DNA of 64,000 nt from Antedon mediterranea (GCF_964355755.1 NC_092678.1:20229365-20293364); one strand, 5' to 3'; counted from the first letter of the stretch, positions 10,720-59,101 are shown. The notes: generated from the sequence alone by a model not told the origin. Translations and numbers: made by a program.

Positions 10720-13700
10720 ATGGCATTGTCTTATTGCACTATTATATTTATATTTATCCAATCATCAATAATTATAGTCAATTCAAGTCCAGTTGTTCAA
10801 ATTAAGGTAGGTGTATAAAACCCACTATGACTCTAGGCCTAGCCTAGGCCTAGGCCTAGTAGCCTAGGCCTAGCCCTAGGCCTACTACACTACTACTACT
10901 CAGTCTAGGCCTACCTTACCTACTAATAAGTAGCTAGCTAGGCGTGGCTAGCGTACTGGAACGGAGTACAGTACAGTGTAACTGTAGGCTATAGGCTCAA
11001 GTTAGTGGCTAAAAAGGCCTAGCTAGCTAGGACTAGGTAGCTACCTACAGTAGGCCCCTAGATAGTAGTACTGTACTAGGTATGTGGGACTGAGTTGACT
11101 GTCGGTGTCACCAAGTTTGATATTGTTGTGATTTTAGGTCGGTGCTGGAATGGCCTGATAATGAAAGCTACTAGGCTTACCTTAGCAGTCCCGCTTGTCC
11201 TAAATCACACAAGTATCCGAAAGCAGTAAATCCAAATATCTTGGTCAATTCCGGTTGTGTCCGTTTCTCCTTGGTTCCTGCTTCGAATAGATCGGTTCGG
11301 CCGGCGTCGAGGCCTCACGTTAACATTTGCATACCCCCTGTATGCAAATCAAGGTATCGGGGCGACGCCCTCGTTCGGTCGGAGGGGTGGTCTGTTTACC
11401 CAGCGGGCGCCGTTCACAACACTCCTCCCGTGTTTGAAAAGCGGGCACCCCGTCCTGGGTCCACCTCGGGGGTAAACCAGGTGATTTTCGTACGTGAAAA
11501 AATACCCGATACCCGTAGCTATGTAGACTGCTCCCAACGATCTCTTCAGATAGTCAATGGCCGTGGGACATGCCGGTAGCACCGTCCCCTGCTTCCGTCA
11601 GCAAACGGCACCTGGTCCCTGTCTGAGAGAGAAGAGAAAATAAACGCGAGTACCTAATTGTTAACCGAGGACTTGCAGTCCGCACATCGATATAAGTCGA
11701 TGTCCAAGGCCTCAGATGGTGCAATATTCACACATGCACCATGGTACCACACCTCGCAATAATCACATTGTATCATAAATAAGCCGGCCCAGGGCTGGCG
11801 ACATAGACAATACAACGGTCCTGCATCCGGATCTGTAGGTGAAGAGAGAGGGGGTAAATGAAAATCAGCCAGCCATTTGGGAAGTTGTCGATCCCGACAG
11901 GGCTTCAGCTTATCATGATTTAACACCACCATCTTATTTCTCAGCTGCACCTGAAATAAACAAGAACTAATAACGTTAGTAATAATACCGGGCCCCTTCC
12001 AGGGGGGACACAATTTCTTGCACTTCCCCCGAGGGGTAGCGTTGTCAAGAACGTAGACCTTGTCCCCGCATTGGTATGGACGTTCCAGCACTCGAAGATC
12101 ATAGTCCCGTTTCATTCTCTTCTGAGTCTGCTTTAGCGTATCCCTAGCGATGCCATGGGCATCACGGGTCGCTTTCACCAAATCTGCAACGTAGATAGCG
12201 GCTTCCTGCTCATCAGTGGACCGGCATTCTCCGAACATGAGATCAGCTGGTAAATTAACCTCTCGGCCCAGCATCAGCATGTTTGGAGTAAAACCAGTCG
12301 AGCGGTTCACCGTGGCGCGTAGTGCACCAGCAATCTGCGGGAGATAGACATCCCAGTCTCGTTGTCTCTTCCCAACGAAGCATCGTACAGCATCCATAAG
12401 TGTTCGATTAAATCGCTCTACTTGACCATTAGCCGACGGTCGGTAGCTTGTCGTCCGGGTCTTGTGGATCTGTAAAACTTTACACAAAGATGCAAACAAT
12501 TCACTCTCAAAATTTCTCCCCTGGTCTGAGTGTAACTGAAAAGGTACACCGAATCTAGAGAAGAAGTCCCTTACTAGGGCTCTAGCGGTTACCTCCGCAA
12601 CCTGAGACGGGAGCGGGCTGATCTCAACCCATTTTGTGAATTGGTCGACCATCATAAGAACGTAAATATTCCCCTGTTCAGTTTTTGGTAACGGGCCGAG
12701 GAAATCGATATGTACGCGTTCCATGGGAACGCCGGCCTGGAATTCAGTCAACCGATGTCGACCTTGCCGAGTAGCCTTCTTGCTTCTATTACAAATATTG
12801 CAAGTCTGTACATACCTCTGTATATCCCCGCCCATACCGTACCAGAAAAACTTCTCCTTCAATCGGAACTTGGTCCGGGCGACCCCTTGATGACCCGCCG
12901 ACGGCAAATCATGATGTAACCTAAAAGCTACGGCGTGTAGCTCCTTGGGCAACACAAGTAGTCGTCCGGTACCCTCTGCTCGGTTGATGAACAGTATACC
13001 TGCTTCCGTGAGATGCAAGCGTTGCCTGTTCAGCCAGTAGTGTTTGGTGGCAGCGCTGGAGATAAACAGCTGATTCTCGGAGGGTTCCCCATTCCGCAAC
13101 CAGTCCAGAACAGGTGCCAAGTCAGGATCACTCGTTTGATGTTGCCGTAGCTCATCTAGTGAGTAACCCCAACACTCGGCTCCCTTCGGCCGTAGCTGTA
13201 CTGCAGCCACTCGTCCACCATCATCGTCCTGTAGGAAAGAAAACTGAATCGTACCGTTAGTAGCAGTCCGTGATACCTCTATACTTACTTGTCCACCGGG
13301 GTCCCAAGGAACATCGTCCCCTGGCAGAGTACCCTCCAGGTGGTCCACGGCTACCTGGTGTACGTGCGCGATGGGCACAACGTCGTCCACTTCATCCTGG
13401 AACGCTGACCATCTCGCATCCGCTCGTTGACAGTACGAACAGCCCCCACAGGGAAGCCCTTCAAGCGCAGGCCGTTCGTGGCTACTGTTATGAGTTTCGG
13501 GTCGGCGAGACAGAGCATCAGCGTTGCCATGGTGTTGCCCTCGGCGGTGTTCAATCAACAGGTGGTACTGGCTCAACTCCTCGATCCACCGAGCGAGTTG
13601 CCCCTGTGGCTGCTTGAAGTTGAGGAGCCAGGTCAGGCTGTTGTGATCAGTCCGCACTCTAAAAGGTCTGCCCAGAAGGTAGTGCCTAAAATGCCTTGTC

Positions 13701-16700
13701 ATGAACACAATTGCTAGCAACTCCTTGCGTGTAGTGCAATAGTTCCGTTGTTCATGAGTTAGACGAGCACTTGCGTATGCAATTACCTTCTCCTTACCTT
13801 CCTGCACCTGGAGCAGCTCGCCTCCTAGCGCTTGATCCGAAGCGTCGACATCCAGAATAAATTCATCAGTCCCGTTCGGCAAGGCGAGTAGAGGAGGTTT
13901 AACGAGAGCAGCTTTCAGGTCGGTGAACGCTTGTTGTTGTTCCTCATCCCAGTGAAACTTCACCTCTTTTTTAGTGAGTTCATATAGAGGTGCAGCTAAA
14001 CCAGCAAAGTTCTCAATGAACTCTCTATGGTAATTAGCCAACCCCAAGAACTGCTGTACTTCTCTCAGATTGGTAGGTGTCGGCCAGTCTTGAACAGCCT
14101 TTATATCCGAATCGGACACTGCCACCGTATCCTCCCCAACGATTCGCCCTAAAAATTCAACCTGTTTCTGAAAGAAAACACACTTTTTAGGTTTAAGTTT
14201 AAAGTTGTTAACACGAAATCGCTGCAGAACCTGAGAGAGGTTGCTGAGATGATCTTCAAACGTTTTACCTAGCACGACAATATCATCGAGAAATGCCAAT
14301 ACCGTATCCCACGCCAATCCCCGCAGCACCAAACCCATGGCACGGGAGAAGGTTGCAGGACAATTGGTAAGACCAAATGGCATTTTCACGAATTCATACA
14401 GGCCATGCTTGGTGATAAACGCTGTCTTCTTACGGTCTTCATCCTTCATCTTAATCTGCCAGTACCCCCAAATCGCGTCCAGTTTAGAAAACCAGATATT
14501 CCCCGACAGTGTGTCAAGGCAATCACGAATCAGAGGTAATGGATACGCATCTTTAGTCGTGATGTTGTTGAGAGCTCGATAGTCAATGCAAAAGCGCACA
14601 GAACCATCACGCTTCCGGACCAACACAGGCGGTGACGCCCATTCAGACATGGATGGTTGAATAACACCAGCCTCCAACATCTTCTTTATCTCCTTTTCCT
14701 CCTCCCCCACAAAGCGCAGAGGAGTATGGCGGAGCCGTTGCCTGATCGGTGAGGCATCTCCAGTGTCGATGCTGTGTTCAATATCACCAAAGGTGCCAAT
14801 GTCGAACTGATGAGCGGCGAAGACATCCTGGTAATCAACCAATAGTTTAGTGAGCGCGTCAGCCTCTTCACCTGAGAGATTAGATCTCGAAGAGTCCAAC
14901 ATGCCCACTAGGTGCGCCGGCACCCCCTCGGGTTGGTTACCGTCATCGTCCGCTTGATTCGACAAAGCATCCTCGGACGGAGTCACCCCCGTCTGGAACA
15001 CACTCACCCCTTCAGCTTCCCTGGCCGTACCTATCTGTCTACCCTTTTTCATAGTAAGATAGTGATCAGATGTGTTGATGACACAGATGCATGGCGCATC
15101 AGTGCGTAGATGTAAAGTTGCCGGTATCGCCACATCGTCAGTAGTTGGAACTGGCTCTATAAAGAAATCAGGCATAGATACATTGTTAGTCACAAGTTTA
15201 CATTTAACATGAGCGGCTGAGTGAGGAGGAATTACTCTCCGTTTAGCCACCGTTACCTGGGCAACCCTAGGTTCCACCGGTGAATCCCCTCTTAGAGATA
15301 TGGTACTGCCCCCAATTGCCAAAAGCAAATTTCCACAATCGATAACGGCTCCCTGTGGATGAAGAAAATCACCACCCAAGAGCATATCGTCATTGATGGG
15401 GGCAACATAAAAGAATTCATGGTACTCTTTGGTTCCCAATGTAAATTGTAGCGGCCCCACCTTCGACCCTGGCATAGATGTCCCCCTCCCTGCCAAAGTA
15501 AAGGACAGGGTGGACACCACAGGTGGTGCCGGATCTAGACTTTTATAAACCTTATCGGATAGTATGGTAAAATCCGCTGCAGTATCCACGACTGCGTCAA
15601 TTTTGGTACCATTGACAAAAGCAGTTGCATGCAACGCATTCAATGATTTTACCCTATTGATAACAATCCGGGTTTGAGTCTCTTCAGTTTTGGTTGTCGT
15701 CGGTGTAGATGATTCAATCAGCCCTGAGCTAATTGCAGACGGCTCAATGATCGTCACAGGATCCGGCGCTACCCCCTCTGTATTTACAGGCTTGGCCATC
15801 GGGCCTAGCTTGGGGATAGTCGACGAATCATCCTCTTTCTGGCCAGCTTCTGGAACCGGGTTAGGTCGTCGGCCCTCTGACCCAACCCTTACTCGTTTAA
15901 CGGATCCGGCTCATTGCCACTAACCTGACGCAAACGGCTCGCTAATCTCGGACACTCCCTGCGGAAGTGTCCCACCTCCTTACATTCAAAACAAGCCAGT
16001 TCGCCTGGTTTCAGGAAACGCATGAGCTGATCCAATTGATTCCGCATGGCGGCAATCCCCGTGTTCACGGTGTTCTCCACCCGTCCCAGATTGGTATTCA
16101 ACGTCTGGAAATTACCCTCCACAGTAGCCAAACGGGCTTCTGTAGTAGGAGTATTGTTGGTGGGTGGCACCGACGTCACAGTTCGAGGCTGGTTCTGGCC
16201 GTCAGTAGGTGCGGGTTCCGGAGGAACCCAAGCTGGTGCTGGCCTTTGAAACGTTACACGGTTTCCCCTCATAGGCCTCCCTCGCACCTGCTGAATGGAC
16301 ACCTCATCGCCAGTTTCACCCTCGGTATCGTCCTGGTCTTCTGAAGGTAGCTGAAAAGATAGTGGGGGTGCAAAAGAAGTACGGACCGTGGACCTAACAT
16401 GAGGTTTCACGGTATCCTTAACCTTACTCTTACGTTTACTATATAACCCCCTATAACTATCATATTTTTCAAACTCCCTAATAGCTCTGGGAATAGTTGA
16501 ACAGTGCTTGTGCATGACATGCCTACCTACTTCCGCATCCCTGCACCCAATGCAAAACCTAACTACGGCCTGCTCTTGGATCCACTCCTTGGGTAAATCC
16601 TTAAACGCCTTTCTAGTCAAGGTTAGCACTCTATCTCCCCATTCCTCTATAGTCTCTCCCTCATTTTGCGTAGCAGTCTCTAATTTAGCTTGGAGGACTG

Positions 16701-25700: not shown

Positions 25701-28700
25701 ATCATCTTCTATCATTTTTTTGCCATGACCTCTGACATGATTTGAACCCAAGAATCTGCCAATCATCAACCCCAATTACATTTCTATTTAAATTATTGTC
25801 TTAACTCAATAGATGGAACATTCTCATCTGGTGAAGTTGGAGAATATTGTGAAAATTGTCACAATTGTCTCCATGGCGAAGACAAGATTAAGGACTGTAC
25901 TCGTGAAAAAGACACGGTTTGTGAATGTCCATATGGTAAATATATCACCAGCTTTAGCACATGCGTACCGTGTGATGAATGCAATGAAAAAGATTGTAAA
26001 ATAGTATGTAACACAACGACACCAAAATCAACGGCAACACCGCTAAAACAGTCCACAACACCTGGTAAGTTTCAATCGATTAGGAAATCATTCTCAATTT
26101 GGCAACCAAAACTAATTATATGATGATCAGGAAAACATTGTGGTTGTTTAGAAAATTGAGAAATATACCTCAAATGTAGTTTAACAAATACAACTTAAAT
26201 TTATGTTAATTTGAACAACACAACAACTCTGATCTTTACTACACTACCTGGATTTGTGAAAACATAATTTTTAATTAATCGATCATTATTTGGACTATGT
26301 AACTTTTAATTTATTTTTATTTACTACTTTTCACAGCTAGAACCATTGTAATGACAACACCAAGTCAAAAGACAACAACATCCACATCTATACCGCCTAC
26401 CACCAATAACCAAGAAGAGGGTTCATCGTGGAAGGATATATACCTTGTACCAATTATTTCCTCTTCAGGTAAGGCTCCCCTTAAAGGAAAAATGTTATGT
26501 CGATTTGTACTTGTATCAATTATCTAGTGGCATGACATGAATGAAAAAGACATGACACCTGTTACTATCAGTGAATTACACCCACCTCTTGTATTGTGCA
26601 CAGGTAGAGTATTGTATATTACAGCTCATTCATGAATAATTTGATAATTTAAATAAGGACCAAAATTTAGTGCATGAGAATTACTCCAAGCTAGTCACCT
26701 GTAGCCCATACAAGCTTTCGTGGTCATTCCTTGTTGCCATAGTCTTTGCCTACTACTACTACTACTAAAAATCAATAAAACAGCATGTAGTACATTCTGT
26801 TTTATTGATTTTTTTTTTCAGTTTTATTTTTGGTTTTCTATTGGGAGAATGATTTTCTTTGTTGTCTTTACAAAACTAACCCAGATAACTACATATTGAA
26901 ATTACACATATAAAATAAGAACATTCAGTTTCTGAATTTGTTATTCTTGTTATATTTTAGTGTTTGTTATCTTTGTTATTGGTGGTTTATGCATCTGTGC
27001 TAGAAGGAGTTTGTGCTGCTGGACTAGGGAGTCTCGAGAATTTTGGAGAAATTATTGTCCCTGGTGCTGTAAGTTTCTTATGTATAGATTTACCGAAGAT
27101 TGTTTATGAAGTATTACGGCCCTGATTTTTAGAACCATTAACAGGTTATATAATGCCTAACGAATTTAAGGAGTATTTTTTCTAAAAGCACTAAATTCTT
27201 CAGCCAATAAATGTTTATAATCTTTGCTTCAATAAACAGTTTGTGAACATAAATTTGAAAACATTGGTTTGATCATACTAAAATGTTATTCTTCTGTATT
27301 TATTAGAAGAACCAACAAGTTGTATACAGTATAATTATCAATATATTTTGATTTTAGGCAAAACAACTGGAATTGAAGGTGGAAATGAAGGAATTGCTGT
27401 CTCCCAGGGTAATAAGAAATCTACCATGTGTAATATCCTAGCAGGTAAAAATATAACTGATTTTATTAGTTTTACCAAACAAGTTTTTTACTAGTTTGAA
27501 CAAATGTCTGTTTCAAATGCAATTTGTATTTTTGTTCTTCCTTTCTTGGAAAATGTGTGACTAGATTCGATAATAAACATTTTTATGTTGTTTCTATAGT
27601 AAAGCAGCTCAACAACTTTGTTTGTTTATTTTTATTATAGGGTGTTGTATAACAGTCCAACAAACGGGTAAATATATAATTTTTTAGTTGTAGTTACATA
27701 CACTATTAATCATTTTCACTGTGTGTGGGAGAGATGAAAAATAATGTCACAGTTTGATACAGAGTAGGGGCTATCAGTGAAAAATCTACAAGGCAGTACT
27801 GTACTGTAAGTAAGAATAACAATGTATTAGAAGACTGGAAATGAGCAAGATATACGGATTCAGGACTACTGTAAAGGTCAAAGATACTTTATACTGTACT
27901 TGATTGCTTGATTGAGATTATGCTGTTATTTACAAGACTGGTAAAATGTGTAGGCTAGTCATTTCATTGATACATAGTCATAGACTGAGATTGTGGTGAT
28001 ACCTGAAATATTGCAGAACATATCACAAAGCGTAATAATGAATAGGAAATAGTGTGGAGGAGGGAAGAAAATGTGGAGTATGGCATCATACTTAAAACCA
28101 ATTTAAAATTCCTTCTTTAAATTAATCTATGTGGGTGTGTGTTGGTAGTGGTGGAGTACATGGTCAATAAGATAAGGAATAAATATATATATATATATGG
28201 TGTTTATTTTATTGTATTGTATCTTCGCTGAAGCCTATGTAAAATGGCATTATGCATAAATATACATTTCCTAATAGTAAATTTGGTTTAAAAAAACATC
28301 ATAATTTTCATTTTTTTTTAAGGGGCTGGAGACAATGCAGGTATTATTTCTAGATTTTAATGTCACATTTTCTCATCTTTATTCTTCACTATTCATTTTC
28401 TCCCTACTTGCAACATCTTTTAATCAAACAAAATTTTAAAAAAGATGTAGTTTGGGCCCAGCGAAAAATCATATTCTGCTACTGCATCTATCAAAATTAT
28501 ATAATATGATTATCAATATTTTTATTTGAAGGCAAACAAAACGAAAGTGATAATGTAGAAAGAAATAAGAAAACTACTGCTACTGCTAACATACAGTTAA
28601 AACATGTAAAAATAAAAGGTAAATATTTTGTAAATACCTGTTACTGAAGTTGAAGAGACAATTTTACTAGTGGAAATGTGTTCTTCACATGCAAGTTAAA

Positions 28701-31700
28701 AGTTACACACACTGACCATAATCATTTCCATTAGGACATTAAATATTGAATTCTGTACACTACTCATATATTTGTTATTTTATTATAGGTTCTTCCGTAC
28801 ATATACATGGTACATCAGCTACAGGTAAAATTATAATGACTTGTGTTTATAGTTTTTTTTAGTACATTTGTAAAAGATGCATTGTTCACATACTTGGTTG
28901 CACTGTGTGAGAGAGATGAATAATAATGTACAGCAGAACAATTTTAGGTGTATAAATGAAACTATGGGAGTGTACTGTAGAGTAGGACACTCATATTAGA
29001 GTAGGAGGTGTTTTTAAAGTTCTTGAAAAGATCCTCTAAAGATGATGAAACTTGTCGTAGAGTTAACAAAAATGTGAACAAGGTAGACATTTTAGGCCAG
29101 ACATGTGTAGAGTTTCCATCAGACCTCCCAACCCCAGGATAAGTCAGGAGTCTCCTGATATATCAAGTCATCTTCTACTAATCTCCTGCTAAAATAGAAT
29201 TTCTCCCAATTTGTTTATGCAAAAAAACATCCTTATGGATAAATGTATTACTTTAGGCTCTACTACAAGGCAAGGCAAAAATGTATTGCTCTAAAGCATT
29301 TACATCTGCCATACCCATTGTTTACTAGAATTATTAGTGATAGCACCTCTATAGTTTTTATTGCACCTTCTCTTGTTTTAAATGCTATCATAAACAATTA
29401 TTCTAATATTTCATTTATTTAACTTGGGGCCTCTGTCTTTTCTGAAGATAGTATTGCATGACAATAGAAGTAAGACAATAAATAGCAGACTTGAATTGGG
29501 GTGTGAGAAGGTATGGAGATAGGAATGGATCAGGGAAGGTGTTGCTGAGGATATCAAAAGAATTTGTGCAAAAAAAGCAGTAGAAAAAGCTATAGAAATT
29601 CAAATTCTATTCATTTCCGCAGTTTTCCTGAATTCAATCTTTATTAACATATGATGCAGTGAAATGTATATAAATGTAAAGTTTTATATCAATATGGCAA
29701 TACTTAATTTTTTCTGAATGTTTGTTTATTCAGGTAATGATAATGTACAAAATACTACTACTCCTGCACAAGGTATGTGTACTCTTTGTTTATTTTCATC
29801 ATTATATAATATCATAATTACATATATATTGTATACAATATAATACTGTATTTATTTTTTTTAAGGAGCTGGAGACTGTGTATCAACAGGTACTGTTCAT
29901 TATTGTCTTTTTAGATGTTAATTTCTTAATTGCTCACTATTCACTTTTCATTCTGAATAGACAAAATGATATAAATTAAAACTAATTATTTTTTTTTTTT
30001 AAATCAGATAGTGTATTTGAAGAGGAAAATGACAAGACTGAAGGTAAGTTGGATAGTCAAAAATGGACACAAATTCTCTGTGGGAGGGGGTTTTAGACGT
30101 TTTATAGACCATAGATATTAAGAAATCAGTTATTTCTTGCCAATAGTCTATTACAAGTGTTATATGGTAGAAAGAAATTAGGGCCCTACTTGTTAATTTA
30201 TGTATCAAATTTAATGCTCGGACAGAAAGGTCTAATATTAGTTAACTTACAACATAAATTAATCAACTAGCGTTCACACAATCGTTTTATGGGAATTTTC
30301 CAATGAACAAACTAAGTCATCACAACGCTATCCCTGGGACGATTCGTCCCAGGGATTCTTTTTGTGCTTCACGAAAATTGTACATAATTTTTGCCCTAAA
30401 TTCACCCATGAATAGGAGAGTCATTGAACAAGAGTACAAATACTGAAATGTTATTACTGTTGTTTTAGGAACTGACAATCCTGAGAAAAAGCCTCTTATG
30501 AATCCTAATGGAAGTTCTGTGAAACAAACTAATGGAAGTTCAAGGAAGGGTAAAAGAAGTCTTATGAGCCAACGTTTATCCATCTCCAGTCTTCCTGATT
30601 TACCTGAAGATGGACCTCTAAGTCTACCTAGCTGGTGTTACCGTAAGATAAAGATATTTAAACCTACCTTATTATTGAAATGATATCTGTCAACATCAAG
30701 TATGCCATCTTCTTTCTAAGAAGCATACAAGATTGTTTTCATTCATAAGTTTTCTTTTTTATAGAGGACAATGCAAGAGTTCAAAAGGAACACATATTAA
30801 ACATCGCACCACACATTGGGAAAGAAGTAACAAGGATGGGTTTAAAACTTAACTTTACAAATGGTGAAATGGAAACTATTGAGCATAAGCACGATTCAGA
30901 TCTATTGAAACAAAATTTAGTGGTATTACAGCAGTGGGTGGAAAAAACAGGTGTTCATGCTAAGAAGGGTGTTCTTGCACAGGCTCTTGATGATGTTGGA
31001 AAAGCAGAGTTTGCGATGAAACATTTGTGGTCTGATCAAGAATGGAAACAAGGTATTTAATTGAGTTAAACATTTTCAAAAACTTTTTTTTCATAATATT
31101 GTATTGTTTTTAATATTTTGTTTACCATATTTATATTTAAAGAGAAATCTAGTCTTATTGCTGTTTAATATTTTGTTTAGGGATGTCAAAGATCACTAAA
31201 AAACCAACATTTTGGGGAAGAAGAAAAAGTCAGGAATTGGAGGTCAAACTTGATTCTGGTTAGTATTCTCTGATGAAATATGGTCAAATGATTAAATTCG
31301 AAATCAAAGACCCTAGACCTATATTTTTTACCTATTTTAAGGTCACACACTACATTTATGTAAAATAAATACTATATTGACCTATTGCGATAATTTCTTT
31401 CTTTCTAATTTTTTAAATGGTTAAAGTGTAAAAAAATAAGTCATTTCTAATAATTTAGGCAGCCCGCTCTAATTCCCAACATGCATCGCGCACGGATTGT
31501 TATTTTCATATTGTGAGGTTATGCATCAATCGCGTGAAAGGGTAAACAAATAAAATAACCGTAACTTTTCAGTGAAAATACAGTACCAGGAAAAAGGGAA
31601 AAAATTAATTCAGCAATGACACAAAGTTACCACTCTTTGGTAGGCCTAGAAACGTCTATGAGAGATCTTTCAACACAAGTTACTTGCTATTAAGGAGAGG

Positions 31701-38229: not shown

Positions 38230-38271
38230 GATTCATATTTTGTTGATGTGTGAAATGAATTGAAATTATAA

Positions 38272-38620: not shown

Positions 38621-39739
38621 TTATTACTACACATCAAGAACTCGATAAGTTTAACTTAGAAATAGAAGATAAACTGAGGTTCATAAAGTATAGGCCTACC
38701 TGTGGTTCTTATTATGACATTACATTTAGTTTAATTAGTTTATGTAAAAATATTGAAATTATTATTCCCTGACAACAGTATTGTTAAAAAAGTGGTTTAT
38801 CAGACGACGTCCTTCCGACCCAAGTCTTCCTATCCTCCACTATCATGTGTGCTGATTGTAGGCCTATTTCCATGTCTTTGCATTCAATTTGTTTTCCCCG
38901 TCGTTTCTTAAACGGCAAATCTAAATGATGTGACGGAATTTGACACAAAAACTGCGGGGACAAGCTTTTTCCATAAAAAAAAACTTTACAGTTCGGGATT
39001 TATTGTATGTAGGCTTTAATGATGGTTTTTGAATAATAAAATCGCATGAAATCACAATTAAAGTACTTTTAAGAAATATTTTATGAACAAAAGTGCAGTT
39101 ATCAAAAATATATACGGCGATCATAAAATTGAAAATGTACGATAGGGGGTTGCCTGAAACATTTTTATACAAAACTAACAATATCAATGTTATTATCTTT
39201 GGTTTATGTATTTATGCTTAATTAATTTTTACAATAATGTTGATTATATTATATTTTTTAATGATGAATTTTCAGTTTGTATCTCGAGTTGCTACTAATT
39301 ATTACTCTAACTGCATGGACCATGGAGGTATAAAATGGACTAACTCAAATAGGATTGATAGAAATTTAGTTTTGTTTTGACAATCCGGTGGTTCCAAAGT
39401 TCAGCTGCAGTTGATTACTTACTGCCCCTAATAATCAAGCTATATTATAATTGTGACAACATGAATCACTTGTAATCTAGCAAATGTTGGGTAACACCGG
39501 TGTTTTGGCCGCAAATTTGTAAAAAAATTAATATCTGATTCAGATAACATGTTTCTAACTACACCGCTCGAGTCTTCTGAACAGGTGTGGAGTTGTTGAG
39601 TCGGTTGTCATGTAAATTACGAGACGTTTACTATATAATTTTTTAATTAAATTTAATGGCTATTTAATTATGTCTAAGCTAAAATATAATATATAATATA
39701 ACAAATTGTCAATGATCTATTACGTTACAGGGTTTACAG

Positions 39740-39849
39740 GCGAAAAGACCGATATCTGTAAACATATTGAGTGCTCTCCTGGGTAGGCATACCAGTTGCG
39801 AGGGAGGTAGAGACGCTTGTGCTGGAAAATGAGTGTGAACCATGCATAG
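39740..39849 (+). pseudogene. Decayed copy of receptor exon 2 (relic third paralog)
   Basis: Aligns to 42798-42906 and 24718-24823 but has frameshifts and an in-frame TAG. Flanking sequence out to ~40150 matches intron 2 of genes A and B. Confidence 0.85.
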
Positions 39850-40441
39850 GTAAAGATGATGGTTCCTCTGTAATCAATATTGTTTGTAGTAGCCTATGAA
39901 GATGGTATAGTCTGGAATTAATCATATTCTTTCAGTCAACAGATCGAGACGATGATCAAATCCGGGGTACCTGGGAATTTAGGTAATTGATTCGCTCATA
40001 CATTCACAAAAATGAAAAAATCTTTAAAATATTGTGTTTTTTACTGACGTCCTTTTTAAGTGGAAACCCAACTCACAAGACACAAATATGCTATACTCAA
40101 ACATATCTTTTTTTGCCATGATCTCTGACAGGATTTGAACCTAGAACCTGGGTAGCTATAGGCATCTTGCTAAAACTTTTTACATACGTTCTATTTGAGA
40201 GTCAAACCTCTCTTTCAAACACGTGTTGTCCTCCTCTGTTGTGGGAAAACCCCTGACCATAGAGTGCGCGATGCATGTTATCCATCACTGCACTGTCATA
40301 TCATGGAACTTATTATTATAGTTCCATGCATGCTGAACTCAAGGACATTTAAAAAATGATCGAAGATATGAGCTAGTATTAAGGTGTGTGTAGCCGTTCT
40401 TGTTTATGGTGATGAAATCCTAAGCCTTTAAGTCGTATTAA

Positions 40442-43400
40442 ATGGAATTGTCACATTTCACTATCCCTATTATATTTGTATTTATTCAATATTCTATCAT
40501 TTTAGCGAGTCCAGTTCAAATTAAGGTAGGTGTAAATAATCATATCCGACCAAACTAGAGGCTAGGCTAGGCCTAGCTAGGCCCTAGCCTTTATTAAGAA
40601 GGCTCGTATAGGGCTTAAAGTATTAGGACTAGGGCCTAGGTAGCGTACCCAGGACTAGTCTTTGGCCAATTGGAATACAGTACTAGGCCTAGGCCTACTG
40701 CTAGCCTACTGTAGGTTTAGATTGGATACTGTGGTATAGGGCCTACTGTAGATAGCTAGGCCTAGGCCGTGGCATGATTTTAGGTTGACTTGACTGACTG
40801 GCAAATTTAGATGGTTTTGGTTGGGATGGAACTTATTATGTGTTCATTCGAATAAAATACAAATAGTTAGTAGGACTAGACTGTGGGCCCTAGCCTAGCC
40901 TAGTGTATTAGTTTTATTTCATGATTTATATTGTATTATTTATCATGACTGTAATTAAAAACAAATGTTTTTACTGTATGTAACAACAAAAAGAAAACAA
41001 TTTTATCGCATTACACTAACAGTAAAAAAAAACTTTGCCAATCCATCCCCAACATCATAATGCTTTGTAATTATAGTACAGTACTTCAAAATACAAATTC
41101 CATGAAATAAACAGAGTTTTGTACAAATCTACTTTTAAAAAACCAGTTGCACTAATATAAAACTATTGTTTTTTTTATTTTTTATTTTGTACACTATTAT
41201 TAAGTCAGAGAATAGTGATACTGTATTAAATATCACCTCCGATATATTAATTACATTTCCATGACACAATTAAATTATGTATTATGTGTGGTAATGTTTG
41301 AACATTTTTTCATTATTAAAACCACATATGCTGATGTTATGATTTAATTTGATTGACAGACCTCGAAACAAAACAAAAATACACATTAGAAAAACCACCT
41401 GGAAAGGAAACGCCCACAGTACATTGCTCACTGACAGGATAATATGCTTTAACTTAAGTACTGTTTTAAGAAACGTGAATGTTTAAACAACAAACAATAA
41501 ATATTTGATAGGCTAGTTATTTTTCAAAGCATCAATCAAATAATTAAAAAAAAACATCGTAGATAACAGTTATTTACAACACTTATAATTAAAGATGTAT
41601 TGTCCCCCTGAAAAATGTTTGACTTTTCTTTTGTTGAATATGCCATTAGATGTCACATAATAGTTATCCACTTTGACCATACAATGAATGATAAATGATT
41701 AAATGTTCAGCTGTTTGGAAACTTTCTGATTGACTGATCAGAGTTTGAAAACCCAACATGAGTGTGCGTTGTATAAAAATGTTCTACTTTGCTACCAAAA
41801 TTGAAGCGCTTTTTTCAAGCCTATATCCTCATCCTAACAGATTATTAAAATTTAATTTTAAAAATATTTGACATTTTAGAACAGTAAAAAATAATTAAAT
41901 AAATAAATGTTTTGTTGTTGGAAAGAATATTTCATTTGTTGAACAATTGTTATGATTGCCTTCTAAATTTGTTTCTGTTTAAGTTTTCTTTATGATTATC
42001 ATTTCACAAACCTTGACCTCATTTTTGTGTGTCAAAAGTTATAATAAAAGAAATTTCTTCTAATTGTTCGTTATGACCACAAGAATACACAAGGGAAGAT
42101 CGTGTATTGTTTAAGCTTCAATAAAATTCCCTACTCTGTTATTGTTAAATGAACCTGTAGCAGGTTTACAAAGTTACTCTAAAAGTACTGATACACAGTG
42201 ATAATAATAATTGGGAAGTATAAAAATTTTAAATTTTATTTAATATAAATGTTGCTAAAAATGGTTAATTATACTGCAAAGTTTAAAGTCTGGTTCTTAT
42301 TCTCTTCCTTCTGAATAAGTTGTAGTTGACACGCAGAGCTACAGTATACATTTCATAAAATATTTTCCACCAAATTGGGCGTGTTCCACAGGGTCAATTT
42401 CAAGGTCAAAATATCGCTCAGTTTCATCCAACACAAGAGTACACAATACTATACAAAAATACCTCAAAATCGGACATGTATTTCCAGAGATATAACTATT
42501 TAAAATGTGGCAGCCACGCCATTTTTCAAAAATAAAGAAGAAAATTTAAACTTTAATATCTTGAAACCACTAGTCCGATGAAGTAAGCTTTACTCGGTAA
42601 GGTAAGATTTAAAATGTATTTTTTGTGTGAACTGAGTTTAAATGACCCAACTTCTATTTTTTTTTTAACACACGCTTCACATTATAATATACAGTACTTA
42701 ACTGTAAAAATAATGCTTTTAATTTGAATATTTAAAAGAGAACATTGTAAATTAATTTTTTTTACTTTAGGCCTACCTGTATCTTTTTGGTTTATAGGTG
42801 AAAAGATCAGTAGATATCTGCAGAGACGTTGAGTGCCCTCCTGGGTACCAGTGTTGCGAGGGAGATAGAGACGCTTGTGGTGGAAAAGCGTGTGAGCCAT
42901 GTATAGGTAATGCTATATTTGTAATAAAATTGTTATTCTTTAAAAAAAAATGCAAACATTCTCATGGTCAATAGAATATTTGAAAAGCTTAAATGATTGT
43001 AATTTATAGTAAAAACAAATGTGTATAAAATGATATGTCTGGAATTATTACTGCCTTCTCTGATTCAACAGATTGAGAAATTATCAAATCCAGGATGCCT
43101 ACTGGAATTGGGGTAATTTTGCTCTAACTAACATAGACTAGTTGTTTGGCAGATTGTTTTTCACTGTCCAGCAAAAAGGAGGCAACCATTGTTTACAAGA
43201 CATACAGTCTTTTTGTCAATGATAAACAGTCTTTCCTCTCGGACAATACATGATGTGAACCTAGGTCCCTCTTAACTTTAATTATAATAGAAATTATTTA
43301 TTGTTTTAAGATGAGGAAATCTGTGAGATATTATTATTATTATTTATGGTATCTGTTATTTCATAGAGATCTATGGTTATTTCCATATTATTAAAATACA

Positions 43401-46400: not shown

Positions 46401-49400
46401 GGTTCATCATATTTAATCGAGCACGCATCCATATTCTACGTATTCAAATTTCTTATACACGTTAATATGTTGTTGGTGAGATAATGTCCTTCCGAAATTG
46501 CTATCTTAGTGTTTAATTTTAATACCATGTTAAAAATTGGAATAAACGGTGGGTCCCGTAATTTCACCTATTCTACACTGTATGTAATATGTATACAGAT
46601 TATACTGCATATACTATATGACACAAAATAGACAGAATTCAGCACTAACAAGATATGATATTCTTCAGTTCAGGTCATAATGCCATAATCTTTTTCTGTG
46701 TGCAATATTCCAACGTATGACGTGCACGTGGCGTTTGTCGTGCGGATAACTAACTCGTCAAAGTGACGAGTTTCATGTCTAGTTTTTTTTTTTTTCTGTA
46801 TTATTGTGTCTCGCGTATCTCAAAAACTTGTAAACAAAACATTTTATAACTTTGTCAACATGTGGGCATTCACGTGAAATTGTGCACCTCCTATTGTGAA
46901 TGACGTCAGAATTGCGCAACGTGATTTACGCGCGTTTTAACGAATTTCGCGTATTTAACATAGATCGAAAACCATATAGCAATTTAAATTGAAACTTAAC
47001 AAAAGTTTAATTTATATCTTGCGCTAACTGACTGTGGAAAAAAAATGGCATGTTTCACAAGAAGTTACGCGCGCACGGGCGTTTAAAATTTCAAAATGCG
47101 AAAAATCAATTTCTAATCAACTTTCTACGCGTTTCATGTCATTTTGAGCATGTCAAAAATTCCCACGCGCGTGCATATTTTTACTCGAACGGTGCGCACG
47201 TAGCGTTGAAAATAAATTGTTTTCGCGTGATTCATGTTTTTCCAGCCTTTTCTGGTAATTTTACCAACTTTTGAACAATTTTGACCTAAAATTACGTCAT
47301 ACGGGCACATCCAATTGGATAATTTACGTGCGTTTTTGATGAAAAAGTTCAAAAATGTGTCAAAATTCGTCAAAATTATGCCTTTTTTTAAACATTCATA
47401 GATTCTAAACTACGAGGTGAACTTTTTTTAAATTATATATTCTGGAAGTTGATGAGTTGTAGATATGGAATCATGCATTAATATAGCTAATCGGACATTA
47501 TAACGTCATCGTATGGCCACGCGAATATAAAATATAGGATCTTTATATCTTTCGTCATAGCGCATCACATTTAATAGAGCGCATCTCCACTTATCCGTTT
47601 TTTATTTTCACCCCGATTTTGATATTGTCTAGGTGAATGAACTATCTTTCGCATGAGTTAAAAATATTTTAATTTTTATGACGTCATCATGTCGAAAATT
47701 GTAAATAACGTGGGTCACTTATTTTCATCTTTACAGTAAATTTCAATCTGTTATAGCTCATCAGAATAAAAAGTGATAATCATGATTAAAACGTTTTCTG
47801 GAAGCTATTGAATTGTAGATATGAAATCATGTAAACATTTTGCCAATCGGATGTTGTGACGTCATCATATGGCCAGTTGAATAAAAAAAATTGTATTTTC
47901 ATATTTTGCGTAATAGTTCATCACATTTAAAAGGGTGCGCATCTATATTTTACGTATTCAAATTTCTTCTACACGTTAATATGTTGTTCCTAAGATAATT
48001 TCCTTCTGAAATTGCTATCTATGTGTTTCATTTTGATACCGTCGCCATGTTAAAAATTGGAATAAATGGCGGGTCCCGTAATTTCACCTATTCTACACTG
48101 TATGTAATATGTATGCAGATTATACTGTAGTGTTTGCATGTATACTATATGACACAAAATTGACAGAATTCAGCACTAACAGCATATTATATTCTTCAGT
48201 TCTTGTCATAATGCCAAAATATTTATCTGTGTGCAATATTCCAACGTATGACGTGCACGTGGCGTTTGTCGTGGTGCGGATAACTAACTCGTCAAAGTGA
48301 CGAGTTTCATGTCTAGTTATAATTTATTTGGAACAACAGCACTCTACAGAGAACTTAATTAAAATAAAATACACCTTCAATATTTATAGAAATATCAAGT
48401 ACAGGTGCAAGAACATACATTGTTTTTTGGTTCCAAACATCAATTGCAATCGACAGAATTTGCTCAAGCATTGCCAATTCCTTCAGTCTAATATTCTGGA
48501 GGTCAGGTCATGAGGAAAGGATCTTCAGTAGTAGAATTATATAGGTTACATAAGCTGTCTTTATTGTTATCATCCGACCAGCTTAATATACATTGTAATG
48601 TATTGGACTGCAATTTTAATTTTAAACTTGCACTTTCGAACCCTATACATTGTGGTGCAACTATGTTCTTCTCCTGACATGCATAAACAGTGATACTTAT
48701 TGTGGTCTATGGTACTTGATAATCAAGAGAATTCAGTGTATTTTAAACTTTCTTATATTTTTAGTATTTTTACTCATCATCGGCATAATCGTTCTTTGTT
48801 GCAAGTTTAATGAGAAGTTTCGGAAATTTTTGGAAAATCTCTTTCCTGGCTATTCCTTTGGTAAGCTGTTTTTTCTATTACTTTAAAAAAAAGATTATAT
48901 GAAGAATTTTCCCCATCATTCTCTTTGCTCCAACCCATACACGGAAGATAAATGCAAGCAATGCGTCTACAATAAGCACTGCTCTTTTCCAATAGTGTAC
49001 CAAGTTTTTTATTGTACATGGTAGACCAACGGCTTAACAACAACCTGAAGGATGAGGCAATAAGGGAACTGTACCTTTTCACATGCCAGTCCAATTCATG
49101 AATACACCATTGTGATTTTTGGCCACTTCCCCTCTCGCTAGAGATTTAAAGGATTATCTTTGTATCATGCCGACGTTTTTATCTGTGTTTATTATTACAA
49201 TTGTATAGTAATGAAATAAATAAAATATAATTCTGTTAACAAACTCAACATTTTTCTTACCTGCAATCAAAAAGCCTAGCTGAAAAAATTATTTATTTTG
49301 TTATATGTTTTTTGGAAAACTGAAGTGTTAATTTTTTTCTTTTAGGCATAATACATAAAAAATTTGCAGAGGGTGATAATAAAATCCAGGATGAGAAATC

Positions 49401-52400
49401 TGATATCACACTGGTTAATATGGCAGGTAAACATTTACTTAATAAAATGTATTAAATAACAACATAATAAACAATGACACTACAGAACAGATGACTTGTA
49501 TTGTCCAAATAAACTGGAAATATTGAATATCGAAACGTGGCAGGCTCTAGTTAGAATTTATAATTTAAACTTACGATACTTTTATAGTATTGTATATATT
49601 CGGGAGTAGCCGCTGCATACTCTCTTTGCTTTTCTTCCTTATATGTATCTATACTCTTCATGTTCAATTATTTATACTAACATATAATTATTATATTGAT
49701 ACGTATAACATAACAGTTAAATATGTAAATGTAACAATTAATGAATAACCAATCTACTACACGATAATTTAATCTATACACAAGATCATTATTCCAAACT
49801 ATTTACACTAATAAAGTTAAATATCTTATTTCGATTTCTGAAAAAACATTTCAATCTTCTAGCTACTAAAGCTGAAGTATAGTCATATCTTGGGACCATT
49901 CTATAGTTAACACCAGATAGGTTTTCTTCATCAGTGCTTCTTCTGTTGAGCGCAGGAACGCTAGTTGACAATACCCAATTTAAAAACTCCTACAAAATGT
50001 AAAGTACAGTGATCTCTGGAAAGGTGCCATAATATAGTTGTTAATGTAATGTTATTTAAAGAATAAATTACATGCACACCTCTGTCCGTTTTTCTTCATC
50101 TGAGAAGGAAAATGCATTAGTAAATTGATTTTAATATTTTTTTGTTTCATTTTAAACATTTTTTCCCCAAATTGATGATTAAATAATGATTTTATTGTTT
50201 TTTAAAGGTGGTGAGGACAGTGTACCAAGTGACGAAAAAAAATCACAAGGTATAATGTTTTGTAATTTTTACAATTATAACCCACATGATTCCTTCATGT
50301 TCATTCATCTAAAACCTCCAATACCATAGGCCTACTGTAATCTCAATTCCTGCCAAGCAAACATTATAAAGTTTTGTTTCCACACAAGTGATTTCAATAT
50401 AATAGGGTTTTAGCTAAAATAGATAATAGACTGTACAAAAGCCATTATGTATTTTCCTAGATTTTCCATCAATTGACTATTCTTTTCACAAAAAAAATAA
50501 ATAAAAATAGTTTTTGTCCAGGTTTTTTCTTAAAACTTATCACTTGACATTATTTGGGTTCCACATACAGTAGAGACTTATACGCTCGTATTCCTAAACC
50601 AAACTTTAGTCGTAGTTCGAAGTTCGACTTGAAAAAGTCCTAGTTCGAGCTATTACTTCAATTTTGATTCATAAACGAAGTAATCAAAGTTTGCAGTTCG
50701 ACTTAATGAAGTCGAGCTTTTAGTCGAGTTGCACACATCTGGGTAACAAAGGCTATACATTGGCCAATGACAAGAGAGTATTTGAGGAGGCAGACGAAAT
50801 TTTGCTCATTGATATAACTTTCCATTTTCTTACAAAACGTTTTACGCATCAGGACTATAATACATGAAAAATAATTTTAATTGTTAATTATTAGAACAAG
50901 ATCAGTATTAATTAATAACAGTGAAGTACTTTTGATTAACAACAAACAAAATCTTCAAAATATATTTAGGAACCATGGCTTATTTTCTAGGCCTCCAACA
51001 AAGTATGATCGCGACGAACCACGTACTTCATAGTGTGACAAGAAAGCGCTAGGCCCCCTAAACATTCCATCGCGTGGTGAGTTTCCGCATCTCCCATTGT
51101 CGCTATGGCGTGACGTAGTTCAAAAATAATAATGTAATTTGTATAATATGGTTGTAAATAAACATGATTTAAGCATAAACATATACCAATGTATATTTAA
51201 GTAAGCTAATATAAAAATATTTCATTCTTCAATATCTGGCCAATATTACAACTCAATGACTGTTTAACCTTGTTTAAATACCATTTATTTGGTGATTTAG
51301 CCTGCCCCCTCGAGGACTAAAAAAATCGATCAAAATCCGTCTCGATTTAAGTCCGGTTTAAGAAGACGGGCGATAGAGTCTAATCAGACTATGGTTTCTG
51401 CAAAATAAATTTCACATTGTGCACAGGTTCAACTTGGAAATATGAAATATCGTGGCCAAACATACTGTATGTAATCAATATTGGGCATCAGCATCTAAAC
51501 AAGGTGTGGCCTATTCTGACGTGTATTGTGGAAAGTGCATCACCAAAAAATTATTTTAGGTAACCAAAAGGAGTGTAGAGAGACTATGAGGATACTTGTA
51601 ATATAATTCAATACAATCAGGAGAAACAATAAATGTGGAAACTCCCGCGATTAACGCGAGACTTGATTGTGCTACACACCTACTAACTATATATAATACT
51701 GTATTCGAAGTGTTAAGAAGTGTCCAAAATGGCTTTTGTCAGATATCCCATGTTTATTTGCAATTCTTTATATAGATTACAGTATACAATTTTGACTCTA
51801 GTAATGAATATGAATAAAATTAAATCAATTTTTCATTTGTTTATTATACAGAAACTATGAGTGCATCATGTAAAAATGATGTTGACAAGCCTAAAGGTTA
51901 GTTTAAACTCTTACCTTTTATAAAAAGAGTATAATATGCAAAGATTTATTTAAATAAAACTAATTACCTAATGATAGTTTTTCTTAGTTAGACAATAACT
52001 ATTTTAATCTAACTGGTTACTGAAAAAGGGAGAGGATTGGGGGAGGTAGAGAGAGGATTGGGGGAGGTAGAGAGAGAGGATTGGGGGAGGTAGAGAGAGG
52101 GAGAGGAACTCTAACATCTCTAATATGTAAAGATGGATAAAGGTAAATGCAAGAAAACTGAAAAAGTTTCATTAACCAAGACCCAAATTCTTTTTGTTTT
52201 TGTAATTAAAACGCTTTTATATGGCCCTTTGTCAAAAAAAATGTAATCAATCATTTTGACAATTCAAAAGATATGTGTAATATTGAAATTATATTATTAT
52301 TATTTAGCGATTGAGGAACAAGAGCCACTTATGAAGTCTGATGACGTTTTCGTCAAAAAAGGTAGTGGAAATTTAGGGAAATCTGCTGCTTTAAAAAAGA

Positions 52401-54734
52401 GGTTTCCAAGACGACGTTCCTCGACCTCCAGCCTTCCTGATGTACCAGAAAACCGTCAATTATCAGTGGTTCTACGAAAATGGTGCTATCGTAAGAATTA
52501 AGATCATTCAATATTCTTCTGATTTGCGTTCTTTAAAAAATTAAACATAATGTGTTTTAACTTCTATGAATGATTGCTTAAAACACTTTTTTGTTTTCAT
52601 ATAGTGTACCTATACTTTGTTTTTATGGTATACAGTAATGCCTAAATAGATTTCTGTCATTTGATGATAAAAAATAAGCACCCTATTTTTGTCGGCGGAA
52701 GATAAATAAAAAAATAAAATAATAGATCCTTAAATTTTATGGCCTGTCACTTTCACTTTCATTTTTAATTACTCTTTTTATTTTATTTATTTCTTGGATT
52801 ACTTTTTTTATGTGAAGCGCATTTATGACATTAAAAGTCCAAATTTATTATTATTATTGAATAAAAACAGATATTTTATATTCATAGAGGATAGGGCAAG
52901 AGTTGAACCGGAACATGTTTCTGAAATCTCAAAACACATTGGGAAAGAAGTAGCAAGGATTGGTTTCATGCTTGGCTTAACAAATGGGGAAGTGGAAACT
53001 ATTGAGCATAACCACAAGTCAGATCTTTCTAGACAGAATTTAGTAGTTTTGCAGATATGGTTGGAAAAGAGAGGTGTTTCTGCTACGAAAAGTGTTCTTG
53101 CACGTGCTCTTAACAGTATTGGAAGACCCGAACTTGCATTAAAACATTTATGGACTGACCAAGAATGGAAACAAGGTAATTCCTTTAGTTCGAATGTTTG
53201 TTTTCATGAAAAAGATGTATATTTAAAGCCATGACCATAGAGATAATATTGAATAACTAGACAGTCAACTCTAACACAATCACATCTCTTTTTAACATGG
53301 AGAGGAACCATCAAAATATTGCAGTATCGCATTAGCTGTGCCGTGCCTACTACTTGGCCATTCACCACTATATCTCTGTTGTAGTATGTTAACTGTATCA
53401 AATGTATTCTTAATAGTTAATTTTATAAAAAGTGTACTGTATTTAAAACAAATATGTTGCCATTTCGGGGAGTCCTTGCCCTGTCAAATTACTAATTGTC
53501 TCTTAGGTAACTCTTGAGTAGATTAGTATATATCTCTAAATAGCCATGACAGATTTTTTTTTTTTTCGACTGTCAGAATATTTAAGTTTTTTTTATATGT
53601 TCACCTATATTTAACATTAATTTAATTTAGGGATGCAAGCAGTCAATAAAGAATCAACGTTTTGGAAAAGAAGAAAAAGTCGGGAATTGGTGATCAAACT
53701 TGATTCTGGTTAGTACTTGTTCAACTTCATTGACCAATTATAATTTTCAAGCCCTACTCCTCCAAACCTACAGTACTGTACCTTTCTATAAAACTTTATA
53801 TAAGAAATTGTAATCAGACCTAAGCCATATTAAAATTGACCATTCTACTGTATTCTCTCCAGTGTCTGTCTGTAAGTTTTTAGGTTTTTTAAGTCTTTTA
53901 GTGTGTTAATTTTAGATGGACAGATAAATTACAATCTGTTTTTTATTTCTTTATTTAAAATTGTATTTTATAGATTATTTTGATGGCAAGGATTGGGAAA
54001 TGCAAAGCACATGGCAAGGTATCTGGGAAATTATGTTAGAAAATGACTTTGGGAATTTCAGACAACTCAAATTAGCTTGCGGTGCCGTAGAATTACAACA
54101 GCCACCCCTTGAAGGTGCAGAAAGCTGTCCATATTTTAAGGGGAATCTTTGCTTGGATCAAAATGCTGAACAATTGATTGATTCAGAGTTTATACATCTG
54201 AAGCCAGTTTGTGTATCAGATGGCGTTAACTGTTTATTCTCTGCTGCATCTGTTATCTACTATGGTTCAGAAGATAATTTTCTTGAGTTAAAACTACGTA
54301 CAGTTATTGAGTTGGCCTATCATAAAGATCACTATATGAGACAAAAAGCACTTATCAAGTGTATAAAAGCGGAGTACGCACTGACCAAGTTAGAAGAGAA
54401 TGATGTATTAACCAAACCTAAAGATGTAGAAGCAAACTTTGAAAATTCTATCCGGCAAACATTAAGTGAACAAAACCTCTTCAGCCTGCAGGGAAACTCC
54501 ATCCAGCTGTTCGGCCTTGCATCAGTTTTAAACTGCAATATTCAGTCCGTCTTTCCTACGATGGGTGCATCGGAAACAAGCCCTTTGAATGTACTTATCA
54601 CTCCACGTAAGGAACAAGAAAATCCAGCAACAGTTTTCATTATGTGGTCTAGGCACACACCATTACCTGAAGATGGACAGTTTGTTCCTAATCACTTTGT
54701 CCCTCTTCTTCAAGAACCACCAACCATAAATTAG
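40442..54734 (+). CDS. Gene B: paralogous TNFR death receptor with C-terminal vertnin-like OTU domain (12 coding exons, ~700 aa)
   Basis: GT-AG, frame-consistent exons: 40442-40525 (signal MELSHFTIPIIFVFIQYSIILA), 42798-42906 and 44482-44739 (Cys-rich), 44882-44959, 48765-48860 (TM), 49346-49426, 50208-50249, 51852-51896, 52308-52490, 52888-53175 (death domain), 53631-53708 and 53974-54734 (OTU-like). The last three exons match gene A in length (288, 78, 761 nt). Confidence 0.87.
44482..44739 (+). CDS. Gene B exon 3: TNFR cysteine-rich repeats
   Basis: DGTFSSGEVGGICQNCHHCLHGENKIEECTREKDTVCECPYGKYITSSRVCLSCEKCGEEDCKKVC, inside ORF 44394-44768. Confidence 0.9.
45203..48316 (+). mobile_element. 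Head-to-tail dimer of a ~1.55-kb Helentron/DINE-like non-autonomous element
   Basis: 5' subterminal TTAGTTATCCGCA with adjacent inverted GCGGATAACT and a T/C-rich tract. Both units end TGCGGATAACTAA-CTCGTC aaagt GACGAG-TTTCATGTCTAG|TT (46782 and 48316). Confidence 0.8.
50574..51381. mobile_element. MITE with imperfect TIRs
   Basis: AGACTTATACGCTCGTATTCCTAAACC ... GGTTTAAGAAGACGGGCGATAGAGTCT. Confidence 0.55.
52027..52105. repeat. Purine-rich tandem repeat, about 3 copies
   Basis: GAGAGGATTGGGGGAGGTA repeated. Confidence 0.85.
52888..53175 (+). CDS. Gene B death-domain exon
   Basis: HVSEISKHIGKEVARIGFMLGLTNGEVETIEHNHKSDLSRQNLVVLQIWLEKRGVSATKSVLARALNSIGRPELA. Confidence 0.88.
53974..54734 (+). 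CDS. Gene B last exon: vertnin-like OTU domain
   Basis: PVCVSDGVNCLFSAAS....GSE....ELKLRTVIEL...IMWS...PNHFVPL. Confidence 0.88.
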
Positions 54735-59043: not shown

Positions 59044-59101
59044 ATTTTATTTGAACATATTATGAAATAATAGAATGTCTTATATCAAAAGTAAAAAATA
59101 A

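Follow-up and report, generated by a model that had tools for sequence, protein, structure and literature searches.

Vertebrates keep the death receptor and the ubiquitin-removing brake that acts on it as separate proteins, and the locus described here raises the question of whether a receptor may carry such a brake within its own chain. In a 64,000-nt stretch of the genome of the feather star Antedon mediterranea (hereafter the window, whose coordinates are used throughout), we studied two tandem plus-strand genes, gene A (10720-32777, with 17 exons encoding 779 aa) and gene B (40442-54734, with 12 exons encoding 700 aa), which share one exon order, namely signal peptide, TNFR cysteine-rich region, transmembrane helix, death domain, a 78-nt linker exon, and a 761-nt last exon assigned to the OTU fold. 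Both frames are free of internal stops, all introns are GT-AG, and every intron beyond exon 2 is in phase 1. Our results indicate that this TNFR-death-OTU arrangement is a real, apparently undescribed variant of the death receptors, and they point, with somewhat less than even confidence on our part, to a death receptor carrying its own ubiquitin-editing brake.

The gene B product is identical at every residue to RefSeq XP_071961069.1, and the C-terminal 714 aa of gene A correspond exactly to XP_071961266.1, both named 'uncharacterized protein' in RefSeq. Together with the open frames and GT-AG introns, these identities bear out a preliminary description of this DNA, which had proposed two paralogs each running in one frame from TNFR repeats through a transmembrane segment and death domain into an OTU exon. 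Its further particulars also stood: the 78-nt phase-1 linker exon is present in both genes (31181..31258 in A, 53631..53708 in B) and aligns between them, the death-domain exon ends in a splice donor in both (GT at 31052 and 53175), and NCLF.AAS, ELKLRTVIEL and HFVPL were located at 32274, 32331 and 32739 in gene A and at 54228, 54285 and 54693 in gene B.

The putative signal peptide is encoded by exon 1, at 10720..10806 in gene A (opened by an ATG, with a hydrophobic peak at aa 2-20 and a GT donor, and identical to the start of XP_071961070.1) and at 40442..40525 in gene B, as given by the exon model and hydropathy. Exons 2-3 encode the cysteine-rich ectodomain (24718-24823 and 25813-26064 in A; 42798-42906 and 44482-44739 in the B exon model), exon 3 of each gene passing the Pfam cut-off for TNFR_c6 (E 6e-7 and 4.5e-8, respectively) and exon 2 of each giving no TNFR_c6 match in the Pfam scan; the 18 Cys of the gene A ectodomain are positioned as in gene B. 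A stalk, of Ser/Thr type in gene A, and the transmembrane helix follow in exons 4-5 (26337-26468 and 26961-27068 in the A exon model, hydrophobic peak of 2.53 at aa 188-206; 44882-44959 and 48765-48860 in B, peak of 3.15 at aa 170-188, model helix 172-190). Two hydrophobic peaks, as in type I topology, were found in A, B and the full-length protein of the feather star Anneissia japonica, as judged from hydropathy. The cytoplasmic tail is encoded by small phase-1 exons of low complexity in gene A (exons 6-14, 27358..30642, where exon model and RefSeq agree) and is predicted to be disordered in gene B (exons 6-9, 49346..52490; predicted local distance difference test score, pLDDT, <50 at aa 209-314). 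The 288-nt death-domain exon (30765..31052 in A, Pfam Death E 2.9e-9; 52888..53175 in B, E 3.1e-9) encodes a domain that is helical in the full-length gene B model, with pLDDT about 90. Profile matches of the receptor part in the PDB were the ectodomains of p75NTR, TNFR1, DR5 and CD27 and the death domain of RIPK1. The linker exon, delimited by its splice sites and the exon model, carries FWGRRKS in gene A and FWKRRKS in gene B, within a conserved FW-x-[RT]-R-[KS]-S motif predicted to be flexible; the full-length AlphaFold model of gene B, unreliable over the ectodomain, shows confident death and OTU domains with a short low-confidence linker between them.

Some further observations concern the tail and the gene models. 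An acidic dileucine-type motif, [DE]xxxL[LM], occupies an aligned position in 4/4 full-length crinoid proteins, the tail being otherwise variable; such motifs have a sorting role. In gene A, a motif scan of exons 6-14 found it as E-x-x-x-L-M, together with an SSLP motif, and the dileucine-type and Arg-rich SSLP motifs, at aa 352 of gene A and aa 268 and 299-310 of gene B, are both kept in these four proteins. RefSeq XP_071961070.1 splices gene A exons 1-2 (10720-24823) to gene B exon 3 (44482), which is either an annotation artefact or true read-through splicing that would swap ectodomains, and XP_071961266.1 begins within a gene A intron. An additional, frameshifted copy of TNFR exon 2 lies upstream of gene B exon 1 (39731-39853), a relic of another duplication.

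Direct Pfam OTU scores of the last exons (32017..32777 in A, 53974..54734 in B) are weak, with E-values of 0.081 and 0.0072, below the curated cut-off; from the Pfam set anticipated in the preliminary description, TNFR_c6 and Death (E 3e-9) were recovered, and OTU only at these weak scores. The assignment is supported by structure prediction and profile comparison. The AlphaFold model of the gene B last exon, built with 90 sequences, reached pLDDT 93 and a predicted TM-score (pTM) of 0.91, and its best Foldseek matches were VCPIP1, A20, OTUD3 and Cezanne. VIA-align gave Z 13.7 for VCPIP1 (191 residues aligned, root-mean-square deviation, rmsd, 3.7), 12.7 for A20 (190, rmsd 3.5), 12.0 for both TRABID and OTUD3, and 11.5 for Cezanne, the A20-type matches covering almost the full exon, with rmsd 3.3-5.4 and 11-20% identity. 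By sequence, a family profile search retrieved OTUD1, Cezanne and A20, hhalign placed the whole last exon on vertnin 7-245 (probability 99.9), and the top cluster of an Atlas search was OTU-like (0.95), with 44% of its members annotated OTU. These comparisons support a predicted OTU fold of the vertnin-like class, and they uphold what had been proposed earlier on the fold, the vertnin likeness and the A20-like HFVPL His motif, which is present in both last exons. The homology takes in residues upstream of the first Met of the last exon. An Atlas search with the death-plus-OTU segment gave no usable match, and complex prediction of the death and OTU domains, run with no alignments, scored 0.00, which speaks neither for nor against contact. 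A viral donor of the exon was considered and found unsupported, since what the viral structure library yielded was weak and of generic OTU type (E 5e-4 or worse, identity 8-17%).

Whether the death domain is truly spliced to this exon is central to the argument. GT donors and AG acceptors are in place at 31052/31181, 31258/32017, 53175/53631 and 53708/53974, the four junctions proposed beforehand. With the retrotransposon in gene A intron 1 and the two last exons excluded, 0/2497 other AG sites open 250 codons in the last-exon phase, so the open frame is not due to chance. Between the paralogs, the linker and last exons align together with their splice sites, but no alignment was obtained for the introns that flank the linker exon; furthermore, the death-linker-OTU join is modelled in six gene models from two families. 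Five sequencing runs, none annotated as RNA, cover the stretch, one of which (X1) is presumed to be RNA, and read contigs of four runs were compared over 24000-34000, that is, in gene A only. Contig 4 of X1 (886 nt, depth 17.2) joins 30467-30642 directly to 30765-31050, the intron 30643-30764 being missing, and its death-exon segment ends at the death-exon donor; the linker exon at 31182-31205 shows the same depth, 17.2, from the same contig, whose leftover 199 nt would reach to 32135 if both joints are spliced. In three DNA runs a contig starts at 32106, and several adjacent contigs overlap by 30 bases, which places the branch point exactly at 32135, matching the predicted end of contig 4. 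The splice from death domain to last exon in gene A is thus backed indirectly by one probable RNA contig: the check for RNA junctions, proposed with the initial claim, was answered in this indirect way for gene A. Taken together, we consider it likely that the death-domain exon splices in frame to the OTU exon. A separate X1 contig, over 25826-25914 in gene A exon 3, has many mismatches, pointing to a further TNFR paralog or a transcript of a related gene.

The OTU exon is under purifying selection. In a pairwise counting comparison of gene A and gene B, the last exon had a ratio of nonsynonymous to synonymous substitution rates (dN/dS) of 0.32 (0.22-0.46), below that of the death exon, 0.51 (0.28-1.03), and of the TNFR region, 0.44 (0.23-0.90) (Fisher p 2.5e-9); the linker exon, at 1.71 (0.42-5.85) over 25 codons, is uninformative. 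Invariance among four crinoid proteins is concentrated at family-conserved columns (33/55 against 45/127 at the others, p 0.003). The 3' flanks, 32777-35300 in A and 54734-57460 in B, remain 75-83% similar for some 2.5 kb and reach 94% in blocks, which reflects either a conserved 3' untranslated region or gene conversion; given this likeness, conversion may also contribute to the A/B similarity.

The same order of death domain, linker and OTU domain occurs beyond these two genes. A third Antedon protein, XP_071959969.1, displays it with two death domains in a duplicated tail-plus-death-domain unit, its model containing no hydrophobic segment (signal peptide or transmembrane), and in Anneissia japonica, from a different family of Comatulida, it occurs in a full receptor (XP_033123450/451, 51% across the last exon) and in two further, partial models on the same contig. 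A HMMER scan with the last exon, with E up to 0.001, returned 543 proteins, from which 150 were listed and 147 new ones were Pfam-scanned (90 at E 0.01, 57 at E 1e-4). Among these 147, a death domain was found in three (two Anneissia models and one coral protein), a TNFR domain in none, and transposon-type domains in three (Helitron in a 3220-aa protein, DDE_1, and FLYWCH); vertnins among them carry HTH_Tnp_1-type repeats, and several relatives of 1000-1350 aa lacking a Pfam match resemble transposases by motif. The best non-crinoid match among those listed was a frog vertnin (E 1.9e-17, 36%). When parts of the Anneissia protein were used in word-indexed searches, nothing but the protein itself came back, a weak result that says nothing on absence outside crinoids. 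The fusion has so far been seen only in feather stars.

Domain trees drew on a pool of 145 rows, each 170 aa or longer (81 rows in a quick analysis, 37 and 34 in careful ones). The crinoid OTU domains form one clade (100/99), within which the Antedon copies form another (100/100). A sister position of a coral OTU-death-death protein to the crinoids was rejected (approximately unbiased, AU, test, p 0.0006), and a clade of crinoid and vertnin domains was neither shown nor rejected (p-AU 0.28, 43/71). As to the source of the exon, OTU domains in Helitrons and Ginger1 transposons have been published (PMC9741609, PMC2836005), and this precedent, together with the transposon proteins among the relatives, makes a transposon origin of the OTU exon likely on sequence grounds, which its intronless state fits. 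Among the relatives compared no particular transposon donor was found, no transposase or helicase open reading frame (ORF) lies next to either last exon, and no convincing terminal inverted repeats flank the OTU exon; the frame is a fixed host exon and not an active transposon.

With respect to activity, the candidate catalytic Cys and His, and a Phe following the His, are present in 4/4 full-length crinoid proteins (three from Antedon, one from Anneissia). The Asp 25 residues before the Cys, a candidate equivalent of A20 Asp70, is likewise found in 4/4, and the same column holds Asp in 114/120 relatives; the candidate triads are Asp589 (32202), Cys614 (32277) and His768 (32739) in gene A, and Asp509 (54156), Cys534 (54231) and His688 (54693) in gene B. 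In A20-type triads the acid is supplied from upstream of the Cys (PMC10133868), and a His followed by an aromatic residue, the gatekeeper found in all four proteins, is 477-fold enriched in deubiquitinases and ubiquitin-like proteases and marks Gly-Gly cleavage (PMC7391069). The loop before the Cys differs between the two species. Instead of the canonical G-D-G-N-C, Antedon has x-G-V-N-C, and a one-residue insertion drawn there by pairwise alignments was set aside in favour of substitutions because the profile alignment is gapless at this place; Anneissia XP_033123451 has N-G-N-C, a loop shared with 10/133 Cys-bearing relatives. Judging from these residues, the Anneissia domain, with its N-G-N-C loop, is the more likely of the two to be active; the Antedon copies, with G-V-N-C, may act slowly or be selective for certain chains.

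Taking as shown the exon structure with its open frames, the matches to known domains, the purifying selection and a join conserved in two families, we propose the following model. An intronless vertnin-class OTU frame, likely from a transposon, would have been captured once, in a feather-star ancestor, where phase-1 splicing made it the new terminal exon, with tandem duplication afterwards. Ligand would cluster the receptor, whose death domains would recruit death-domain adaptors as vertebrate death receptors do, and ubiquitin chains assembled on the complex would then fall within reach of the tethered OTU domain. Working with its Cys, His and upstream Asp, and with the Phe as gatekeeper for Gly-Gly ends, the domain would trim chains in the receptor's own complex and thereby damp or time-limit the signal, performing in cis the task that A20 and CYLD, once recruited, perform for TNFR1. 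In human cells, CYLD and also A20, though not OTULIN, are brought to TNFR1 and limit gene activation, and A20 also acts through chain binding, protecting M1 chains in this way (PMC4688036). In its full form, that is, a receptor deubiquitinase made from a captured transposon OTU, editing ubiquitin of its own complex in cis upon ligand clustering, with paralogs ranging from active to binding-only, we put the model forward tentatively, as rather short of an even chance.

Several results weigh against an active enzyme or against its evidential base. Two residues of the Cys loop conserved in the family, Gly at Cys-2 (132/134 relatives) and Asp at Cys-3 (119/134), are replaced by Val and Gly, respectively, in 3/3 Antedon copies, and oxyanion-loop changes abolish the activity of LotA OTU1 (PMC10133868). 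The G-I-W-Q motif (Gly 99/140, Trp 105/140) reads N-S-I-Q or similar in 6/6 crinoid rows, no more than 28/55 conserved columns hold the family residue in all four full-length proteins, the Antedon OTU clade sits on a long stem (0.56), and the His region is missing from one of the two additional Anneissia models, the other being diverged ahead of it. Vertnin is described as an inactive OTU homolog (PMC10318531), and transposon OTU domains had not yet been assayed for activity as of PMC9741609. Furthermore, the X1 run is only guessed to be RNA, comes from one study, and is possibly the source of the RefSeq models. The preliminary description had read the last exon as a ubiquitin module; its architecture, fold, vertnin likeness and A20-like His motif hold, and it had overlooked the altered Cys loop of Antedon, the fusion shared with another feather-star family, and the presence of this domain class in transposon proteins.

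The main rival, which we regard as unlikely though serious, accepts the fusion and takes the OTU domain, at least in Antedon, to be a pseudo-enzyme that would bind chains or a partner and shield or scaffold the complex without cutting. The altered Cys loop and G-I-W-Q motif, the existence of vertnin and OTULINL as inactive OTU homologs (PMC10318531) and the protection of M1 chains by A20 binding (PMC4688036) all suit it, and purifying selection tells of a kept fold, not of catalysis; conversely, Cys, His, Phe and upstream Asp are kept in two families, whereas vertnins have lost the Cys in 6/6 rows, and Anneissia XP_033123451 retains a loop found in other Cys-bearing relatives. If the OTU domain is active, it might instead mainly govern traffic, deubiquitinating the receptor and opposing its endocytic or lysosomal removal so as to raise the signal. 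The conserved dileucine-type position and the membrane tether are compatible with such a role, which we hold to be improbable; the death domain argues for signalling, and the dileucine-type motif is short.

Two explanations appear to us more improbable still. According to one, the domain would be a ligand-gated protease with a target other than ubiquitin (another modifier, an adaptor, or the basic linker of the receptor itself), akin to an amphioxus TNFR-caspase; a cDNA-backed TNFR-protease precedent exists (PMC2575513), the substrate-side loops have diverged, and the linker is conserved and predicted to be flexible, but the Phe after the His suits Gly-Gly-ended modifiers and the best structural matches are all deubiquitinases. 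The other holds the join to be a minor or mispredicted isoform, with a main transcript that stops after the death domain and an OTU exon belonging to a neighbour gene or a transposon remnant. Reading through the death exon reaches a stop after 2 aa in gene A and 19 aa in gene B, and the last intron of gene A contains three copies of AATAAA, making a shorter isoform that ends before the last exon possible; moreover, the evidence for joins into the last exon is indirect, and the RefSeq models here include at least one doubtful join. Against this stand the linker and last exons kept with their splice sites in both paralogs amid diverged introns, the homology upstream of the first Met, the six models from two families, the X1 contig arithmetic ending at 32135, and the lack of terminal inverted repeats around the last exon.

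The window also contains mobile elements. A full-length Gypsy/Ty3-type retrotransposon lies on the minus strand in gene A intron 1 (11124-18921), with two 298-bp long terminal repeats 100% identical and an ATAT target duplication; its gag (17805-15892) and pol (15910-11657; protease, reverse transcriptase, RNase H, integrase and a C-terminal PHD finger) contain no stops, and its sequence indicates a very recent insertion. A minus-strand reverse-transcriptase ORF of 472 codons (57631-59046, RVT_1 E 6e-32) is likely a fragment of a non-LTR element. A 1.5-kb element is present as two tandem copies, 88% alike, in gene B intron 4 (45278-48329) and as an inverted third copy at 59089-60558, and a 1.26-kb stretch at 36975-38233 has inverted ends.

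A receptor-OTU fusion under selection in two families would constitute a natural test of what tethering to the receptor does, and the intact-loop Anneissia protein and the altered-loop Antedon copies offer a built-in comparison; the share of the A20 effect owed to cutting or to binding is a live question. Transposon-borne OTU domains would also be a source on which innate-immune signalling could draw, as has apparently happened twice, in the crinoid receptor and in a coral OTU-death protein, and a receptor deubiquitinase, if true, would give the vertnin/transposon OTU class its first activity. That the architecture was not known to be described, as first surmised, agrees with the full-text literature searched, a body mostly outside subscription journals, in which no TNFR-death-OTU protein was found and which architecture databases might supplement by automatic listing. 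A term search of the available text of an invertebrate TNFR review (PMC4979521) gave no mention of OTU or protease, and its supplementary table, as well as the additional files of PMC2575513, may list architectures.

Compared with known systems, the crinoid proteins resemble the vertebrate death receptors (TNFR1, DR4/DR5, p75NTR) in signal peptide, TNFR cysteine-rich region, single transmembrane helix and death domain, and differ in adding a 250-aa OTU-fold domain beyond the latter; with TNFR1, A20 and CYLD are separate proteins that the receptor recruits (PMC4688036). A20-type OTU deubiquitinases (A20/TNFAIP3, Cezanne/OTUD7B, TRABID, VCPIP1) are soluble enzymes with other accessory domains. 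They are the best structural matches (Z 11.5-13.7) and share the HFVPL His motif, with no acid at His+2, and the candidate upstream Asp, but identity is low, rmsd is high, and the Antedon Cys loop is altered. The N-terminal OTU-like domain of vertnin (VRTN), described as a DNA-binding transcription factor (PMC6001657), gives the best sequence match outside crinoids among those listed; vertnin, however, lacks the catalytic Cys and bears helix-turn-helix repeats, whereas the crinoid proteins keep Cys and His and end after the OTU domain, so that their last exon appears by sequence to be of the same domain class and not a vertnin ortholog. The OTU domains of Helitron, Ginger1 and other DNA transposons have Helitron, DDE_1 and FLYWCH counterparts among the matches, may be of the same subclass, and differ from the crinoid host exon in that the latter has no adjacent transposase or inverted repeats. 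The coral Montipora foliosa proteins XP_068700045/046 combine a vertnin-class OTU domain, its motif intact, with death domains, but with the OTU first, two death domains after it, and neither a hydrophobic segment nor a TNFR region; since the coral OTU falls outside the crinoid clade, this uncharacterised prediction appears to be an independent fusion. The nearest precedent is the cDNA-validated TNFR-caspase fusion of amphioxus (PMC2575513), which likewise unites a TNFR ectodomain with an intracellular cysteine protease, although there the protease is a caspase, an activator with no OTU fold, while the crinoid receptor keeps its death domain and adds a protease of the deubiquitinase class.

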